Shown here: positions 436 to 62,563 of the stretch, one piece after another
How the letters are laid out: each line of letters starts with the position of its first letter
Numbering within the stretch: position 1 is the stretch's first letter
DNA from: Enterobacteria phage ATK47
Sequence record: NC_055708.1
Direction: 5' to 3' (one strand)
Length of the DNA: 64,000 nucleotides
Made by a program: the position numbers and the translations under genes
The notes under the pieces: model-generated
Database searches by the model: none
The model's input: the letters and a program-made list of their open reading frames with translations, nothing else
What the model was told of the DNA's origin: nothing

Positions 436-1122
436 ATGAATAGTTCTAAAGTGTTTAATAGTCAAGCTCGTGCAGTAGGTGGTTTTGCTCATGCGATTAA
501 AAATGACCAGATTAAAAACGAGCCTATGTTCTTTAATTGCGATTTGAATTTTGCTTTTGATAACGGCGGTCCAATTACTCGTAGCTTTATCCAAAATCTC
601 CCTGACGATTGGAAAGACTCGGATGTAGTATTTGATTCACGAGTCCATATGCTGATGCCTGGTTGGTATCCTGCTATTCCTGGTTATCACCATGATGACG
701 TACCACGCCCGGATATTCCGGTTGGTCAACATTTTATTACTGCAGGACAACCTGACTATGACAATCCTCGCTATTTGTCTGAACATATTCTTGGTCTTGT
801 TAACGCTGATGTGTGTCCTACTCATTTTGCAACAGGAACTGCAGAGTTCAGTCAGATTCCTGATGGCGAACTTATCTATCGCCAGTGTCACAAAGAAGTC
901 CTCGAAAAAATTGAAAAAGGTGAACTAGAGAAATGGGAAGCTCCAGATCGTACTCTTCTTCAGTTTGATTGGCAAACATGGCACACTGGTTCTCGTGCAA
1001 TTAGTAATGGATGGCGTTGGTTCGGACGTGTATCTCGTAATACAGACCGAGTTAAAAAGATTACCAATGAAATTCGTGTCAATGCTCAAGTTTATCTGGA
1101 ATTCCCTATGGAAGGCTGGTAA
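436..1122 (+). CDS. Hypothetical protein, 228 aa
   Basis: ORF with SD AGGAAAA; His/Asp-rich segment (GYHHDD...PTHF) hints at a metal-binding fold, unverified. Confidence 0.5.
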   Translation: MNSSKVFNSQARAVGGFAHAIKNDQIKNEPMFFNCDLNFAFDNGGPITRSFIQNLPDDWKDSDVVFDSRVHMLMPGWYPAIPGYHHDDVPRPDIPVGQHFITAGQPDYDNPRYLSEHILGLVNADVCPTHFATGTAEFSQIPDGELIYRQCHKEVLEKIEKGELEKWEAPDRTLLQFDWQTWHTGSRAISNGWRWFGRVSRNTDRVKKITNEIRVNAQVYLEFPMEGW

Positions 1123-1613
1123 TGATTAACAAAACATATTGGTCTAATATAGACGATGGCAACGAAGGTATTTCGTACTATTCAGTGGATTGGACAGGAT
1201 GTCCATCCTACTTAGTGAAACGTATTTGCCAAGAATTTAAAATCGACCAGCCAGCAGGTATTATCGTGAACAGATACATTAATGGATATCAACCTATCGA
1301 TGAAGTAATACGAACAACTCAAGCTGAGCTTGAAAAGTTTTTCAATAAGTGCCAATGGATAACAGGATGGATTATATTTGTACCGTCGGTATGGTTTTTC
1401 AGTACTAAGGTGAGTTCTTTCGGATTTGTTGATATTATTGCTATCTTATTAGCATCTAGTATCGTAAGTGTTGTTGGTGGCATCATTGGCGGCGGTACCG
1501 CCGCCATCATTATTAATCTTATTAAAAGTAGTTTACAAGAACATAAAGACAAGATAAAAGCCAAGAATAATGAAGTTGAACGTTTTATTACCGAATGCAG
1601 GAATTTGAGATGA
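1122..1613 (+). CDS. Hypothetical membrane protein with Gly-rich transmembrane segment
   Basis: ATGA start/stop overlap with upstream ORF. Confidence 0.45.
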   Translation: MINKTYWSNIDDGNEGISYYSVDWTGCPSYLVKRICQEFKIDQPAGIIVNRYINGYQPIDEVIRTTQAELEKFFNKCQWITGWIIFVPSVWFFSTKVSSFGFVDIIAILLASSIVSVVGGIIGGGTAAIIINLIKSSLQEHKDKIKAKNNEVERFITECRNLR

Positions 1614-2328: not shown

Positions 2329-2817
2329 ATGAATATATTTGAAATGCTTCGTAATGACGAAGGTCTTAGACTGACTTTATACAAAGACACTGAAGGCTTT
2401 TGGACGATTGGCATAGGCCATTTAGTAACAAAGAACCCGTCTTTAGCCGTAGCTAAAGCTGAACTTGACAGAATGATCGGCCGTAAATGCAACGGTACAA
2501 TTACCCTTGATGAGGCTGAAAAGCTATTTAATGAAGACGTTGATAAAGCTGTCCGCGGAATCTTGGGTAATGCTAAACTTAAACCGGTATATGATTCTTT
2601 AGATGCAGTTCGTCGGTGTGCATTGGTCAATATGGTCTTCCAAATGGGTGTAGCAGGAGTCGCCGGTTTTACTAATTCTCTTCGTATGCTTAAACAGAAA
2701 CGTTGGGATGAAGCGGCAGTAAATCTAGCTCAATCTAAATGGTATCGTCAGACACCTAATCGCGCGAAACGCGTAATCTCAACATTTAAAACAGGAACTT
2801 GGAAAGCGTATATATGA
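2329..2817 (+). CDS. e: Endolysin (T4 lysozyme, gene e)
   Basis: MNIFEMLR...[22 protein letters not shown] closely matches T4 lysozyme as recalled; the six-frame ORF begins 12 nt upstream. Confidence 0.95.
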
Positions 2818-3095
2818 AAACATATAGTGAATTTTTATCAGAATCTATTCTTAACGAAGCTACTGACACATTTGCAACTAAGCTAGGTGCAGCTTTGGTT
2901 GAAGCTGAAAGTCTATTAGCACGTATTTCTGAACTTGCTAGTAAGATAGATACTCGCAAATTTGAACGTACCAGCGATATCGCTAAGCTTGAAGCCTTGT
3001 TGCGTATGTGCGATAAACCAGAAGAAATCGCTAAGAACGGCTCGCTGATGAAACAACGTCTTGAAAAATATATTTCAGGCGCTTCAGAAAAATAG
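2814..3095 (+). CDS. Internal (capsid-injected) protein with N-terminal capsid targeting sequence
   Basis: Starts [10 protein letters not shown], the T4 IP capsid-targeting sequence pattern with an L-x-E prohead-protease site; ATGA overlap with e stop. Confidence 0.65.
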
Positions 3096-56861: not shown

Positions 56862-57173
56862 ATGGTTTATGTATATGCAATAGTTTATCGAGATATGGAA
56901 GGATTTACTGTCCCGGTTCCACTTGATGAGCATCGTCCTGCAGTATTTTTTAGAAAGGATATTGCAGATAAAGTTTTCGATACTTTGAAAACACAGTATA
57001 AAACAGATTTAAAAATGGGAGTTCTAAGAATGGTCGAAACTCCGCGTAAGTTCTGGTTTAATAAGCTTGAAATGAAACACGTTAAACTAGATGCGGAGAC
57101 GCAAAGATTGTATCAACGAATTCTGGACACAGGCCGTATTGTTAGTATTCCAATTGCAGGGACTTTACGATGA
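56862..57173 (+). CDS. Hypothetical protein (Dda.1 position)
   Basis: ORF overlapping dda start. Confidence 0.4.
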   Translation: MVYVYAIVYRDMEGFTVPVPLDEHRPAVFFRKDIADKVFDTLKTQYKTDLKMGVLRMVETPRKFWFNKLEMKHVKLDAETQRLYQRILDTGRIVSIPIAGTLR

Positions 57174-58483
57174 CATTTGATGATTTGACTGAAGGCCAGA
57201 AAAACGCCTTCAACGTTGTTATGAAAGCTATTAAAGAAAAGAAACATCACGTAACTATTAATGGGCCTGCTGGTACAGGTAAAACAACCCTTACTAGATT
57301 CATCGTTGAAGCCCTTATTTCTTCTGGAGAATCAGGTATTATTTTAGCAGCCCCTACACATGCTGCTAAAAAGGTTCTAAGCAAACTTGCAGGTCAAGAA
57401 GCATCGACTATTCATAGCATTCTTAAAATCAACCCAACTACATACGAAGAAAACGTATTGTTTGAACAGAAAAAGGTTCCCGACTTAGCCTTGTGTCGTG
57501 TACTGTTATTTGATGAAGCATCAATGTGCGACCGTTCTCTGTTTAAAATAATGTTAGCTAGTATCCCTAAATGGTGTACAGTAATTGGAATTGGTGACCG
57601 ATGTCAGATTCGACCTGTAGACCCAGGCGAATCCACTGCGTATCTAAGTCCTTTCTTCACTCATAAAGACTTCGTGCAATGCAACCTTACAGAAGTTAAA
57701 CGTAGCAATGCACCAATTATTGATGTTGCGACTGATATTCGTAATGGCAAATGGATTTATGATAAAGTAGTTGATGGGCACGGTGTTCATGGATATACAG
57801 ACCTTAAATCATATATGATGAACTATTTTAATGTCGTTAAAACTCCTGAAGACCTTTTCGAAAATCGAATGATGGCATTCACAAATAAGTCGGTGGACAA
57901 GTTAAATTCAATTATTCGCCGAAAACTTCTCGAAACAGAAAAGCCATTTATTAAAGACGAGGTCATTGTTCTACAAGAGCCGTTTACCAAGACGTATAAG
58001 CTAGATGGCAAAAATATGTCTGAAATGCTTTTCAATAACGGGCAATTCGTTCGTATTCGAGATGCCGTAGAAACGTCTACATTTGTTAAAGCACGTGGTG
58101 TTTCAGGCGAATATATGATACGATACTGGAATCTTACAGTAGAAACATATGGCGATGATGAAGAATACGTCCGCGAAGATATAAAGGTTATTTCTTCTGA
58201 AGAAGAGCTTTATAAATTCAATTTGTTTTTGGCTAAGACTGCAGAAACATACAAATTCTGGAATAAAGGTGGTAAAGCTCCATGGAGCGAATTCTGGGAT
58301 GCTAAACGCATGTTCACTAAGGTGAAGGCACTACCAGTATCAACCTTCCATAAGGCCCAGGGCATGTCTGTTGACACAGCCTTTGTTTATACACCGTGTA
58401 TCCATTATGCCGATTCAGAATTAGCTAAACAGTTATTGTATGTCGGCACGACTCGTGGTCGGTTTGACGTCCATTTTATTTGA
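57170..58483 (+). CDS. dda: Dda DNA helicase (SF1)
   Basis: Near-identical N-terminus to T4 Dda as recalled; Walker A GPAGTGKTT. Confidence 0.97.
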   Translation: MTFDDLTEGQKNAFNVVMKAIKEKKHHVTINGPAGTGKTTLTRFIVEALISSGESGIILAAPTHAAKKVLSKLAGQEASTIHSILKINPTTYEENVLFEQKKVPDLALCRVLLFDEASMCDRSLFKIMLASIPKWCTVIGIGDRCQIRPVDPGESTAYLSPFFTHKDFVQCNLTEVKRSNAPIIDVATDIRNGKWIYDKVVDGHGVHGYTDLKSYMMNYFNVVKTPEDLFENRMMAFTNKSVDKLNSIIRRKLLETEKPFIKDEVIVLQEPFTKTYKLDGKNMSEMLFNNGQFVRIRDAVETSTFVKARGVSGEYMIRYWNLTVETYGDDEEYVREDIKVISSEEELYKFNLFLAKTAETYKFWNKGGKAPWSEFWDAKRMFTKVKALPVSTFHKAQGMSVDTAFVYTPCIHYADSELAKQLLYVGTTRGRFDVHFI

Positions 58484-58492
58484 GAGAAAATT

Positions 58493-59170
58493 ATGAGCAC
58501 TGATGTTATTATAGATTTTGAAACATTCGGCAATACGTCAAAAGCTGCTGTTATTGACCTTGCGGTTATTGCATATAATTCGGACCCTGATGTTGTTGAA
58601 ACATTTGAAGAACTTGTTCAACGAGGTAAGCGAATTAAATTTAATTTAGCTTCTCAAAAAGGGAAGCGAGTTTTCGCTAAATCCACTATGAAATGGTGGA
58701 AAGAACAATCAGCAGAAGCACGTAAAAACCTGGCCCCGTCTGAAGACGATGTCACTACGCTTGAAGGCATTAAAATCTTTTTAGATTATTGTCGAGCTAA
58801 TAAAGTTGACCAATGGAAATCACAGATGTGGTGCCGTGGTATGAGCTTTGACTTCCCTATCTTGGTCGATTTGATTCGTGACCTCTATCGTGATGAAGGT
58901 GTTCTTGAACCAGATATTGATACCGATAAATTAGAACCTGTTAAATTCTGGGCTCAACGTGATATTCGTACGGCAATCGAAGCTTACTCGTTGACACGAG
59001 GATTAAGTATGTGTCCATTACCGATGGGTACGCTAAAAGGATTCGTTGCCCATGATAGTATTCACGATTGTGCTAAAGATATTTTGATGTTAAAATATGC
59101 TCAGCGTTATGCGCTTGGCCTTGAAGATGTCCCTGAGAATCCTGACCCGTTAAGTGTAAAACAGCGATAA
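58493..59170 (+). CDS. dexA: Exonuclease A (DnaQ-like 3'-5' exonuclease)
   Basis: IIDFETFGN exo I motif; position next to dda. Confidence 0.85.
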   Translation: MSTDVIIDFETFGNTSKAAVIDLAVIAYNSDPDVVETFEELVQRGKRIKFNLASQKGKRVFAKSTMKWWKEQSAEARKNLAPSEDDVTTLEGIKIFLDYCRANKVDQWKSQMWCRGMSFDFPILVDLIRDLYRDEGVLEPDIDTDKLEPVKFWAQRDIRTAIEAYSLTRGLSMCPLPMGTLKGFVAHDSIHDCAKDILMLKYAQRYALGLEDVPENPDPLSVKQR

Positions 59171-59175
59171 AACCA

Positions 59176-59205
59176 GTTTACAACCAAGGATGGTTGGAGT
59201 ATAAT
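59176..59205 (+). promoter_or_regulatory. Conserved early promoter copy (GTTTACaaccaaggatggttggagTATAAT)
   Basis: Identical to the 16157 copy. Confidence 0.6.
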
Positions 59206-59235
59206 CTTTCTATCTTAACCAAACAGGAAAACATT

Positions 59236-59730
59236 ATGAATATCAATACCACGGCTACTTACATCCTGAAAGATGAAAAACAAATCAACTGGTACGGTGC
59301 TTCAGTGCGAGCTTATGAAAAGTTTTGTGAAATTTTAGGTGCCACTCAAGGTAATAGTTTCACTATTGTTAACTTCATCAAACAAGTTGAAGGCCCTTGG
59401 TTATTCTTAGAAATTAAAAATTCATATGGTACAATTTCTACTACCGCCCTTCCAAGCACCGACTTTGAACTGTTGATTGAAGAAGTAGAACCTGTTAAAG
59501 ACATCTGTATTGATATGGATATCGCTTGTATGTATGGTACTCTGATTAAGCCTATTGAGCCTACTGATTTGTTGTGTAAATATGTTTCAATTCGACGACC
59601 ATTCGCTGGTCCAGTAAATGGATGGGTAACTGATCAGTGGATTGAAGACGGTGTTGAACTTCTGAACGTTGTTCATGCAGGTGATTTTAGTGTAGTTCCA
59701 CGTAGTGCTGTGGTTAATATCCTTAATTAA
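59236..59730 (+). CDS. Paralog family member 1
   Basis: Shares C-terminal W(V/I)EDG..L.N.V..G.F.VV with the next two genes. Confidence 0.45.
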   Translation: MNINTTATYILKDEKQINWYGASVRAYEKFCEILGATQGNSFTIVNFIKQVEGPWLFLEIKNSYGTISTTALPSTDFELLIEEVEPVKDICIDMDIACMYGTLIKPIEPTDLLCKYVSIRRPFAGPVNGWVTDQWIEDGVELLNVVHAGDFSVVPRSAVVNILN

Positions 59731-59732
59731 TG

Positions 59733-59762
59733 TTGTACATCCAAGGACGGATGGAGTATAAT
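59733..59762 (+). promoter_or_regulatory. Conserved early promoter copy (TTGTACatccaaggacggatggagTATAAT)
   Basis: Variant of the 30-bp unit. Confidence 0.55.
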
Positions 59763-59792
59763 GAATTCAACTTAAACAAAGAGAGAGAAATT

Positions 59793-60248
59793 ATGATTAC
59801 TATTGGTGAAATTAAGCGTGTATCGTCTGCATCTCGTTCTAAAGCTGCAGGTCGTCTAGTTGAAGTGGTAGGACTTCGTACTAATGGTACTGGTCGTGTT
59901 AAAGAAGTTAAAGTTCGAATCATTCCTAGTTCTGGAAAAACTGAAACTCAGTACGCTTACGTAAGTCCTAAATTCTTGGAAACTCATGTGAGCGCTCATT
60001 TTGCTTCTACTGAACCCAATGTACAGTTCAAATGGGCCCTTTGCAAAGGTGTTGAATTCCAGACTGATAAAGAATTTGACTTCATCGATGAATACGGTTA
60101 TCCAAACAAAACTGATATTATGTGTGGCTTCATTAGTGACCAATGGGTTGAAGATGGTGAAAAGTTATACAATATCGTATTCTTAGGTGACTTCCGAGTT
60201 GTTAAAGAATCTGAAATCACTCGCTATGTATCTCCTCGTAAAGCTTAA
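59793..60248 (+). CDS. Paralog family member 2
   Basis: SASRSKAAGRLVEV...FISDQWVEDGEKLYNIVFLGDF. Confidence 0.45.
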   Translation: MITIGEIKRVSSASRSKAAGRLVEVVGLRTNGTGRVKEVKVRIIPSSGKTETQYAYVSPKFLETHVSAHFASTEPNVQFKWALCKGVEFQTDKEFDFIDEYGYPNKTDIMCGFISDQWVEDGEKLYNIVFLGDFRVVKESEITRYVSPRKA

Positions 60249-60257
60249 GGAATTATT

Positions 60258-60677
60258 ATGAATATTGTAAATCTCTCTATTGGTGATTACGTACACGTAT
60301 CGGATGCTTCTCGCTCTAAAGTTGCTGGTAAGTTGGTTGAAGTTCTTTATGTAAGTGATCCTGCTTTTGGTCGCAATGAAGTTAAAGTTCGTGATGCTGA
60401 TGGCAACATTGGTTACGTTAAAAGCCAATTCATTGAACCAGAAGAAAAAGCGTTCAAATGGAAACTATGCAGGTCTGTTTTAGTTGTAAAAGACCATGAA
60501 TTTACTATTGATGCTGCAACTGATGGAACGCCATGGAAAACTAAGCAAATAGCCGGATTTATTAGCGACCGTTGGGTAGAAGATGGTGTTAAGCTTTATA
60601 ACATCGTTTTCGCTGGACAGTTCATGGTAGTTCCTGAGTTCCAAATCAAAAAATATTGTCCAGCATCTTTTGCATAA
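60258..60677 (+). CDS. Paralog family member 3
   Basis: ASRSKVAGKLVEV...FISDRWVEDGVKLYNIVFAGQF. Confidence 0.45.
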   Translation: MNIVNLSIGDYVHVSDASRSKVAGKLVEVLYVSDPAFGRNEVKVRDADGNIGYVKSQFIEPEEKAFKWKLCRSVLVVKDHEFTIDAATDGTPWKTKQIAGFISDRWVEDGVKLYNIVFAGQFMVVPEFQIKKYCPASFA

Positions 60678-60681
60678 AGTT

Positions 60682-60730
60682 GTTTACTTCTCCTCTGTTT
60701 TTGATATTATAACCATATCAACCAGAGGAG
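60682..60730 (+). promoter_or_regulatory. Early promoter-stem-loop (GTTTAC, TATTAT; inverted repeat ctcctctg/cagaggag)
   Basis: 3' arm carries the SD. Confidence 0.55.
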
Positions 60731-60736
60731 AATAAT

Positions 60737-61261
60737 ATGTTAGTTTACCGCGTAGAACGTAGTTTTTGCACTCAACGTGAATCTTTACCAGGAGTTGCTA
60801 TCGAAGATGGTAAAGCCGTCAGAATTTGGGAAACCTCTTGGAATAAAGAACCTCGTTCGCCATACGGTTGGTCGGGCACCGACAACTCTGAAGAAACATG
60901 GGAGTTCCTTGATAAGCATGGAATACTCTCAGGTAACTTCTACCATCACGGCGACAACTATAATGTCCCTAATCGTCCTACAGTAAATGAAGACAAACTC
61001 CTTGAACAAAATATCTTAAGATACTATAGAATTGAGCACACATTTGAATTGAACGAAGATTGGGCTCAAGGGTTCTATTTTGGATTTGAAAGTGTTGACG
61101 CGGTTTATGCATGGTTTGATGACCAGGTAGATGTTGAACTCTTGAAAGCTAAAGGATACTACATCGCGGTCTATGAAGCACCTGATTTCATCCTCGGAAG
61201 TTGTCAATTAATGTTCAGACGTTCATTGGCAGAACAAGTTGATTTTATTTTGCTAAAATGA
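60737..61261 (+). CDS. Hypothetical protein, 174 aa
   Basis: ORF. Confidence 0.4.
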   Translation: MLVYRVERSFCTQRESLPGVAIEDGKAVRIWETSWNKEPRSPYGWSGTDNSEETWEFLDKHGILSGNFYHHGDNYNVPNRPTVNEDKLLEQNILRYYRIEHTFELNEDWAQGFYFGFESVDAVYAWFDDQVDVELLKAKGYYIAVYEAPDFILGSCQLMFRRSLAEQVDFILLK

Positions 61262-61290
61262 TGTACAACAACTATGGGCTATGATACTAT
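61261..61290 (+). promoter_or_regulatory. Early promoter (aTGTAC, TACTAT) with TATAGACCTATC box
   Basis: 18-bp spacing. Confidence 0.5.
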
Positions 61291-61318
61291 AGACCTATCA
61301 AAACAAGAGGAGAATATT

Positions 61319-61546
61319 ATGAAACGTCAAATCATTAAAAACGTAACTACTGATTCAAACATCGACGAGTTTGAAGATGTTCTGTTTAATCCTGATTTAG
61401 TTGTTGTACAGAAAAACTGGACCGGATTTTTATGCTACACCGAAGTGGTTTACGTTTACGAAAAACTCGGTGATGAAATGCCTATCTACGGTATCTTCCG
61501 TGAAATCACTGAAAACGGTACAACTTATTGGAAGGAAACTTACTAA
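61319..61546 (+). CDS. Hypothetical small protein
   Basis: ATG after SD GAGGAG. Confidence 0.35.
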
Positions 61547-61956
61547 TGGCTAATAAATTCCGCGTTAACTCATGGTACCAATTTAAAGATAAACGTGCCC
61601 AAGAAGAGTTTATTAAAGACCATACTGATAATGGGATTTATGCACGACGTCTTGGCATGGAACCATTTAAAGTATTAGATGTTGACCATCTTGGACGTCC
61701 TACTAAAATTGTGACATCTACTGGCATGGTTGGATACGCGACAGGTGGTGATATCCTTGATGAAAACTTTATCTGGCTCTCCACGAATGAAGCAGAGTTC
61801 TTTGACGAAGTTGGAAATCCGTATCAAGAGTCTGAAGAGCAAGATTCTAGTGAACTTGACGAATTGTCTGAATTTCCGGTGATGACGATTACTATCAAAA
61901 ATAACGACCAGGCGTGGTCTTTGTATCAAATGTTGAAAGCACATTTTAAGGAATAA
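61546..61956 (+). CDS. Hypothetical acidic protein
   Basis: ORF. Confidence 0.4.
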
Positions 61957-62140: not shown

Positions 62141-62563
62141 ATGGCTTTTAAAGGTTTTGAAGTTGGTAAGAAATATCGTATTATCAAAGGTCAAGAAGAT
62201 AATTTCTTGAGAATTCTTAATACAACTGGTAAACGTCTTAACACTACTCTGCATACAGTTTTATTATCAAGAGATTTTATTGTAGAAGAGATGATTGGCT
62301 ACGGTGTTTCAATGATTGCCGCTGAAACCGATGGACCTGGACGTACAATCATTAGTATGCAAGGTGATATTCTGCTTTATGGTGCAGAATTTAAATTCTT
62401 TGAAGAAGTTCAGGAACCAGATACAGCTGTCGATTTCAAAAAAGGCTCTATAGAATTTGTTGATGGTTCGGTGATCGTATCAGGCGATGTGGTCATTACA
62501 GTTAAAAGTGAACAAGGGCGTTTGGCTGCAATTGATGCACTTCAGAAAATTAAATTTAAATAA
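62141..62563 (+). CDS. Hypothetical protein, 140 aa
   Basis: ORF followed by terminator. Confidence 0.45.
   Translation: MAFKGFEVGKKYRIIKGQEDNFLRILNTTGKRLNTTLHTVLLSRDFIVEEMIGYGVSMIAAETDGPGRTIISMQGDILLYGAEFKFFEEVQEPDTAVDFKKGSIEFVDGSVIVSGDVVITVKSEQGRLAAIDALQKIKFK

Follow-up and report, generated by a model that had tools for sequence, protein, structure and literature searches.

A probable motB duplication beside a domain-sharing motB.1 gene downstream of dexA in an RB69-like phage

Introduction

MotB of phage T4 is an early protein, toxic in E. coli, whose binding to DNA, whether modified or not, is not sequence-specific; it co-purifies with H-NS and StpA and increases the burst size twofold (Patterson-West et al. 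2018, PMC6070864). It is predicted to consist of a KOW N-terminal domain and an OB-fold C-terminal domain, it alters the H-NS footprint at proV, and 75 host genes are up-regulated upon expression of motB (Patterson-West et al. 2021, PMC7827196). The same study describes MotB and MotB.1 as having a common C-terminal domain and different N-terminal domains, and RB69 as carrying two copies of motB, one motB.1 and one peptide of 29 amino acids (aa). The N-terminal domain of MotB.1 has been assigned to an LSm-like fold family together with GoF and Frd.2, and deletion of motB.1 gave no phenotype (Kim et al. 2025, PMC12152347). Here, we analyse three consecutive open reading frames (ORF1, ORF2 and ORF3) directly downstream of dexA in a stretch of 64,000 nucleotides (nt) from Enterobacteria phage ATK47 (NC_055708.1), which we refer to as the window. 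A first reading of the sequence alone had described these genes as a tandem triplication, possibly diversifying in an arms race with a host factor. Our analysis indicates that they very probably form the known motB.1-motB-second-motB block, an early, non-essential 'host-takeover' block of RB69-like T4-type phages, in which ORF3 derives from a duplication of ORF2, ORF1 is related to both through domain sharing, variation is driven mainly by recombination, and purifying selection is relaxed.

Publications already cover the motB family and its domain structure, how MotB and MotB.1 are related, and the two-motB layout of RB69, and the identification of the block is in this sense a rediscovery. What is added here is an intact MotB.1 of 164 aa, a second motB that is constrained and has spread between genera, changes in copy number at identifiable repeats, and the observation that pervasive positive selection is not evidenced.

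Results and discussion

Identity of the block

The region surrounding the three genes (58400-61300) is 100% identical to Enterobacteria phage ATK48 and has 95.7% nucleotide identity to RB69, and 144 phage records cover at least 80% of it. ATK48 and RB69 belong, in the taxonomy followed here, to Mosigvirus, T4-type phages of E. coli, and judged by its sequence the source genome of the window is likewise that of a Mosigvirus (RB69-like) phage. The motB region of RB69 (AY303349: motB.1, RB69ORF012c, motB, RB69ORF010c, motB.2) has the same genes in the same order as the window, and in the original RB69 record the counterparts of ORF1, ORF2, ORF3 and the next gene, ORF4, are named motB.1 (split), motB, 'RB69ORF010c similar to motB' and motB.2, respectively. 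The arrangement in T4 is different, with the order dexA-motB.2-motB.1-motB-cef rather than the dexA-motB.1-motB-motB'-motB.2-cef of the window. The coordinates initially given for the three ORFs, and their position directly after dexA, proved exact.

A paralogous pair of motB genes

ORF2 (59793..60248, plus strand, 151 aa) is an ortholog of MotB in which a disordered linker connects a basic KOW-like N-terminal domain to a C-terminal beta domain, and ORF3 (60258..60677, plus strand, 139 aa), the equivalent of RB69ORF010c, is a second and shorter copy. The two proteins align over their full length with 66 identities in 146 positions (45%, E 6e-32), and both match phrog_1671 as well as the motB profile PF17613, for which the gathering cut-off is 25 bits: ORF2 scores 131.3 bits over profile positions 2-157 of 162, and ORF3 82.6 bits (E 3.7e-23). 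Identity to T4 MotB is 48% for ORF2 and 39% for ORF3. The layout characteristic of the MotB family, a KOW-like N-terminal domain with SRSK.AG.LVEV followed by a C-terminal FKW...DQWVEDG.KLYN.VF, is present, and so is its setting, the dexA-cef block of Tevenvirinae with an early-type promoter, as seen from synteny with RB69 and T4 and from promoter-like sites. Both ORF2 and ORF3 thus resemble T4 MotB in their full-length match to PF17613, in the two-domain arrangement of a KOW-like N-terminal and a beta-rich C-terminal part, in a neighbourhood of dexA ... cef and goF, and in an early-type promoter at the same place.

In a neighbour-joining tree, the ORF3 clade is monophyletic in 100 of 100 bootstraps, and the Mosigvirus ORF2 and ORF3 proteins are exclusive sisters in 94 of 100, with the T4-type and JS98-type MotB proteins outside. 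This grouping fits an origin of ORF3 by tandem duplication within the Mosigvirus lineage, followed by faster change. The change is visible in the protein itself: relative to ORF2 and to T4 MotB, ORF3 lacks approximately 20 residues of the linker, and its N-terminal domain is not basic, with a net charge of -1 as compared to +8 in ORF2 and +5 in T4 MotB, so that the MotB charge pattern fits ORF2 but not ORF3.

These losses, together with the reduced length of 139 aa, the lack of a promoter of its own and a location in a region that is dispensable in T4, could be taken to mean that the duplicate ORF3 has no function, is decaying and will eventually be lost. We consider this highly improbable, since the frame is intact in all 12 fetched loci, always with 139 codons and without frameshifts, its ratio of nonsynonymous to synonymous change (dN/dS) of 0.18 indicates constraint, and the gene has spread into Tequatrovirus backgrounds. 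It also has orthologs in 206 records: a tblastn search with ORF3 found 776 phage records, all from T4-type phages of enterobacteria; in 206 of them an ORF3-type gene with at least 80% identity is present, while the remaining 570 contain only distant MotB proteins (below 60% identity), with none in between.

As to the start of ORF2, we place it at 59793, the start at 59730 in the list of open reading frames being over-extended. Several other records do begin the gene at the in-frame ATG at 59730 (172 aa), which lies upstream of the predicted -10 element, and the ATK48 record (KT184310.1, 3832-4358) has no coding sequence annotated for an intact motB, though it is identical to the window there.

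ORF1 and the shared C-terminal module

ORF1 (59236..59730, plus strand, 164 aa) is a full-length member of the MotB.1 family, matching phrog_2333 end to end over residues 1-164 (E 1.7e-82) and T4 MotB.1 with 37% identity (E 2e-27). Its relation to the two other proteins is of a different kind. PF17613 matches only residues 84-159 of ORF1, with 35.1 bits at profile positions 78-153, and the BLASTP matches to ORF2 and ORF3 are confined to the C-terminus (16/29 and 16/36 identities, E 2e-10 and 3e-10). Comparing an alignment of 27 MotB sequences with one of 10 MotB.1 sequences in hhalign likewise returned 37 columns only, with a probability of 97.7% and an E-value of 2.2e-12, and this profile-profile comparison gave no alignment between the N-terminal halves of the two families. 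The block found in all three ORFs is GW/F(V/I)(T/S)DQW(I/V)EDG..L.N(I/V)V..G.F.VV, which is nearly invariant across the families.

Of the three motifs that the sequence-only reading had assigned to all three genes, this C-terminal block is therefore the one that holds throughout. SASRSK.AG.LVEV and FKW.LC are common to ORF2 and ORF3 only; ORF1 has no S-A-S-R-S-K segment, and from W-K-L-C merely L-C-K is present. The significance of the shared motifs in alignment, on which that reading depended, is borne out by an E-value of 6e-32 for ORF2 and ORF3, and, for the C-terminal block of ORF1, of about 1e-10 pairwise and 2.2e-12 between profiles. What stands of the proposed tandem paralogy is the ORF2/ORF3 pair. 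ORF1 is best described as a different N-terminal domain fused to a shared C-terminal module of about 37 residues, and thus as a case of domain sharing rather than a third whole-gene copy. Since only these last residues are shared and the N-terminal domain differs, the locus consists of a duplication with a domain-sharing neighbour, and not of a triplication.

The predicted structures agree with a two-domain organisation. AlphaFold2 models ORF2 (mean predicted local distance difference test score, pLDDT, 78.6) as two all-beta domains at approximately 7-57 and 86-146, joined by a disordered linker at 66-81. In the model of ORF1 (pLDDT 78.4), residues 8-83 form an N-terminal five-strand barrel with a helix, residues 86-108 are a disordered linker, and residues 116-163 make up a beta domain at the C-terminus. 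A Foldseek search against viral models (BFVD) retrieved MotB.1 and MotB proteins, a KOW-domain protein and, weakly, GoF. A sequence search of the PDB with ORF2 gave nothing significant (best E 0.7), and solved structures were not found for any of the relatives.

One could also speculate that all three genes descend from a single whole-gene ancestor and that divergence has made the N-terminal half of ORF1 unrecognisable. Each of the three N-terminal domains is predicted to be a small beta-barrel of the SH3-like superfold, the same promoter and leader repeat of 64 nt stands before ORF1 and ORF2, as expected if the promoter was duplicated along with the gene, and four proteins of Klebsiella and Enterobacter phages (P0160, P0165, P0167 and P0192) have a KOW-type N-terminus like that of MotB joined to a C-terminus of the MotB.1 type. 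However, the profile-profile similarity is confined to the last 37 columns, and at least four different N-terminal architectures are found in front of the MotB.1-type C-terminal module, in proteins of 143-252 aa, a distribution that is the signature of module shuffling. The N-terminal domain of MotB.1 has, moreover, been grouped with GoF and Frd.2 and not with MotB (PMC12152347). A true triplication is thus improbable, and we retain domain sharing as the description of ORF1.

Like T4 MotB.1, ORF1 is acidic (isoelectric point 4.5 overall). It differs from the T4 protein in its length of 164 aa, in a complete C-terminal module, and in an additional linker insertion of about 20 residues (DMDIACMYGTLIKPI). 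This sequence lies in the disordered linker (residues ~90-108, window 59500-59560), and related forms occur elsewhere in the family, at the N-terminus of proteins of approximately 180 aa, between the domains of proteins of approximately 250 aa, and in KOW-type proteins of Klebsiella phages. It could be a short linear interaction motif.

Further copies of MotB or MotB.1 domains were not found across the whole 64-kb window. ORF4 (60737..61261, plus strand), the homolog of T4 motB.2 (34% identity to T4 MotB.2, E 6e-16; phrog_1106), was considered as a fourth paralog and rejected, as it has no PF17613 match and no tblastn similarity to ORF1-3.

Promoters and the direct repeat

The initial proposal that the first two genes have conserved promoters of their own agrees with a direct repeat of 64 nt, with one copy at 59179..59242 and the other at 59736..59799 (plus strand, 75% identical), within which the -35/-10 pair, the leader and the ribosome-binding site are all contained, for ORF1 and ORF2 alike. 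The promoter-like site before ORF1, TTTACA-17-TATAAT (59177..59205, plus strand), is of the sigma-70/T4-early type, lies in the gap between dexA and ORF1, matches 11 of 12 consensus positions and was the best in our scan; the one before ORF2, TGTACA-17-TATAAT (59734..59762, plus strand), matches 10 of 12 and is almost unchanged in RB69, and T4 has a similar promoter upstream of motB at the corresponding position. A further candidate, TTTACT-16-TATTAT with a TG extension (60683..60710, plus strand), is found before ORF4 in the gap following ORF3. ORF3 has no promoter of its own and starts 9 nt after the ORF2 stop codon, with a Shine-Dalgarno sequence overlapping that stop, and is presumably co-transcribed with ORF2. 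ORF1 would then be expressed from its own sigma-70/T4-early-type promoter, and ORF2 and ORF3 together from the second, duplicated one.

Recombination among relatives

The view of the region as hypervariable is supported by its relatives, which include loci without ORF1, without ORF4, with a mere remnant of ORF1, and with hybrids of ORF2 and ORF3. In NHEP36 (PQ511151.1, 2058-2124), ORF1 is absent and the junction between dexA and motB is a precise hybrid of the two 64-nt repeats (window 59170-59242 and 59731-59799), the upstream half coming from the first copy and the downstream half from the second. As the junction is such a clean hybrid, ORF1 was lost in this phage by homologous recombination between the repeats. 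In phage F2 (NC_054913.1, 3020-3082), the second motB is followed directly by cef, without the motB.2 homolog ORF4; the F2 record is filed as Tequatrovirus, and its region is Mosigvirus-like (dexA 98.7% identical). Salmonella phage F13076 retains only the last 25 codons of ORF1, beside a T4-type motB and an ORF3-type gene.

Within the motB genes, the metagenomic protein P0027 (its locus 1373-1894) joins the N-terminal half of ORF2 to the C-terminal half of ORF3 in a single gene directly before cef, as expected from an unequal crossover between tandem copies, and P0029 consists of a T4-type N-terminal and an ORF3-type C-terminal half. P0031 is also listed among the hybrid MotB genes, that is, those with an ORF2- or T4-type N-terminal and an ORF3-type C-terminal half.

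Exchange is also seen between genera. In the Tequatrovirus phages RB9 and Manna, genes of the ORF2 and ORF3 types are present at 85-88% aa identity (ORF2-type 85-86%), whereas dexA, cef and motB.1 reach only 48-67% identity to their counterparts in the window. The ORF3-type second motB is at 88% aa identity in RB9, Manna and F13076, in each case at 2601-3020 of the fetched locus, with dexA at 67%. Since the identity of the ORF2- and ORF3-type genes of RB9 and Manna is far above that of their dexA, cef and motB.1, phages of different genera have exchanged the motB cassette. The variation of the cluster can thus be attributed mostly to homologous recombination, by crossover between promoter repeats, by crossover between ORF2 and ORF3, and by exchange of the cassette between genera.

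Selection on the three genes

Selection was quantified by a pooled Nei-Gojobori approach with up to 10 Mosigvirus loci per gene, which provides rough pairwise estimates on recombining sequences. The resulting dN/dS values are 0.16 for ORF1, 0.19 for ORF2 and 0.18 for ORF3, well below 1, yet two to four times higher than in dexA (0.04), cef (0.05) and ORF4 (0.08); goF has a value of 0.14. The rate of synonymous change (dS) is itself two to three times higher in ORF2 and ORF3, at 0.27-0.28 against 0.08-0.13 in the other genes. No block of 20 codons has a dN/dS above 1, except one in ORF1 with almost no synonymous change (proportion of synonymous differences, pS, 0.018). ORF1-3 are under purifying selection that is relaxed relative to their neighbours, and pervasive positive selection is not evidenced.

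The diversifying arms race suggested at the outset was accordingly not shown. In its full form, this explanation holds that positive selection is diversifying the three genes as paralogs in an arms race, with each of them adapted to another variant of a host target or of a defence system, and there are observations that appear to invite it: among Mosigvirus relatives ORF2 is 80-99% and ORF3 86-94% identical, as compared to 96-100% for dexA, ORF4 and cef, dN is 6-16 times above that of the flanking genes, copy number differs among phages, and MotB of T4 has a toxic effect on the host and acts on DNA to which H-NS is bound (PMC6070864, PMC7827196). It is nevertheless unlikely, given an overall dN/dS of 0.16-0.19 and the confinement of values above 1 to the single ORF1 block with very few changes, and because dS rises in parallel with dN, which speaks for old alleles that recombination has shuffled, not for rapid adaptation, and so accounts for the excess divergence. 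The near invariance of the shared C-terminal block also argues against it.

Possible functions

A host-linked role of the motB genes in the window is plausible in view of the DNA binding and the altered H-NS footprint published for T4 MotB (PMC7827196, PMC6070864). By homology to T4 MotB, ORF2 would be produced early and in abundance and would use its basic KOW-like domain to coat DNA with no sequence specificity, changing how H-NS is seated on DNA, such that some host genes are derepressed and burst size is modestly raised. ORF3 would have arisen from ORF2 once the Mosigvirus-type MotB had diverged from the proteins of the T4 and JS98 types, and would then have lost most of the linker and of the positive charge of its N-terminal domain. 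The neutral ORF3 and the acidic ORF1 may thus be functionally shifted relatives, which probably do not bind DNA in the same way and most likely act through the shared C-terminal module. This module is more likely to be a protein-interaction or structural element than a DNA-binding surface, because it is nearly invariant and occurs in acidic as well as basic proteins.

Several points weigh against the picture drawn so far. DNA binding, the effect on H-NS and toxicity would, for the Mosigvirus proteins, all be extrapolated from T4 MotB, to which they are only 39-48% identical, and the neutral N-terminal domain of ORF3 and the acidic character of ORF1 speak against assuming the same activity. Gene conversion between the adjacent copies could inflate the sister grouping of ORF2 and ORF3. 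Finally, the promoter scan of the whole region was not enriched over shuffled sequence (18 against 13.8 +/- 3.0), the sites being consensus matches only; our promoter assignments are based on the two top-scoring sites, in intergenic gaps and inside the 64-nt repeat.

A more far-reaching suggestion is that the module of about 37 residues is an interface for homo- or hetero-oligomerisation, and that ORF1-3 form mixed complexes in which ORF3, ORF1 or both tune or detoxify the DNA coating and H-NS displacement by MotB. Such complexes would bring together a DNA binder of the basic KOW type, a neutral variant with the KOW-type domain and an LSm-like protein that is acidic and possibly binds RNA, and the block would be a combinatorial set of nucleoid-remodelling subunits, variable in copy number, instead of three independent genes. 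We regard this as a long shot.

The reading frame of motB.1 in T4 and RB69 records

The intact ORF1 of the window bears on how motB.1 is represented in reference sequences. In the T4 reference (NC_000866.4, about 722-1151, minus strand), motB.1 reads TGGATTGGAAGATGG, with an extra G, and encodes a protein of 119 aa (13.8 kDa), whereas the newer T4 records OZ035787.1 and MZ375356.1 read TGGATTGAAGATGG, without the extra G, and encode a MotB.1 of 143 aa with the full MotB-type C-terminal block. The protein P0113 (256 contigs) is also 143 aa long, likewise has the full C-terminal block and is identical to the T4 reference MotB.1 over the first 115 aa. Programmed frameshifting, which we considered for the 29 conserved codons that lie out of frame in T4 motB.1, was rejected, since the two other T4 records lack the extra G. 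It may have been the truncated form that was used in published studies of 'T4 MotB.1, 13.8 kDa'.

A similar situation is found in the 2003 record of RB69 (AY303349.1, 3337-3836), where two single-base insertions split motB.1 into an ORF of 132 aa and the 29-aa RB69ORF012c. In the window and in seven other relatives (six Mosigvirus records and phage F2), motB.1 is one intact ORF of 164-165 aa, and the split in RB69 probably stems from sequencing errors or from a mutation in the stock. Single-base differences that are absent from newer records thus underlie the 'peptide' of 29 aa in RB69 as well as the MotB.1 of 119 aa in the T4 reference, which is relevant to anyone expressing 'T4 MotB.1' from the reference sequence.

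Neighbouring genes

The genes of the region follow one another on the plus strand in the order dda (57170-58483), dexA (58493..59170), ORF1, ORF2, ORF3, ORF4, cef and goF (61546-61956). The exonuclease A gene dexA, which serves as the synteny anchor upstream of ORF1, carries this label at the matching position in ATK48 and RB69, and its product has 68% aa identity to T4 DexA. Two translation-initiation regions of 20 nt are near-identical, one at 60720-60739 before ORF4 (AACCAGAGGAGAATAATATG) and one at 61302-61321 before an internal ATG of cef at 61319 (AACAAGAGGAGAATATTATG), which suggests 61319 as the start of cef (75 aa, as annotated in RB69) instead of 61274. Two genes 3' of goF, RB69ORF005c (62141-62563, 140 aa) matches phrog_622 (E 2.6e-19), the same PHROG as GoF, and also, weakly, the PHROG of MotB.1 (E 0.005); GoF and RB69ORF005c thus appear to be a second local pair of paralogs from the published LSm-like fold family.

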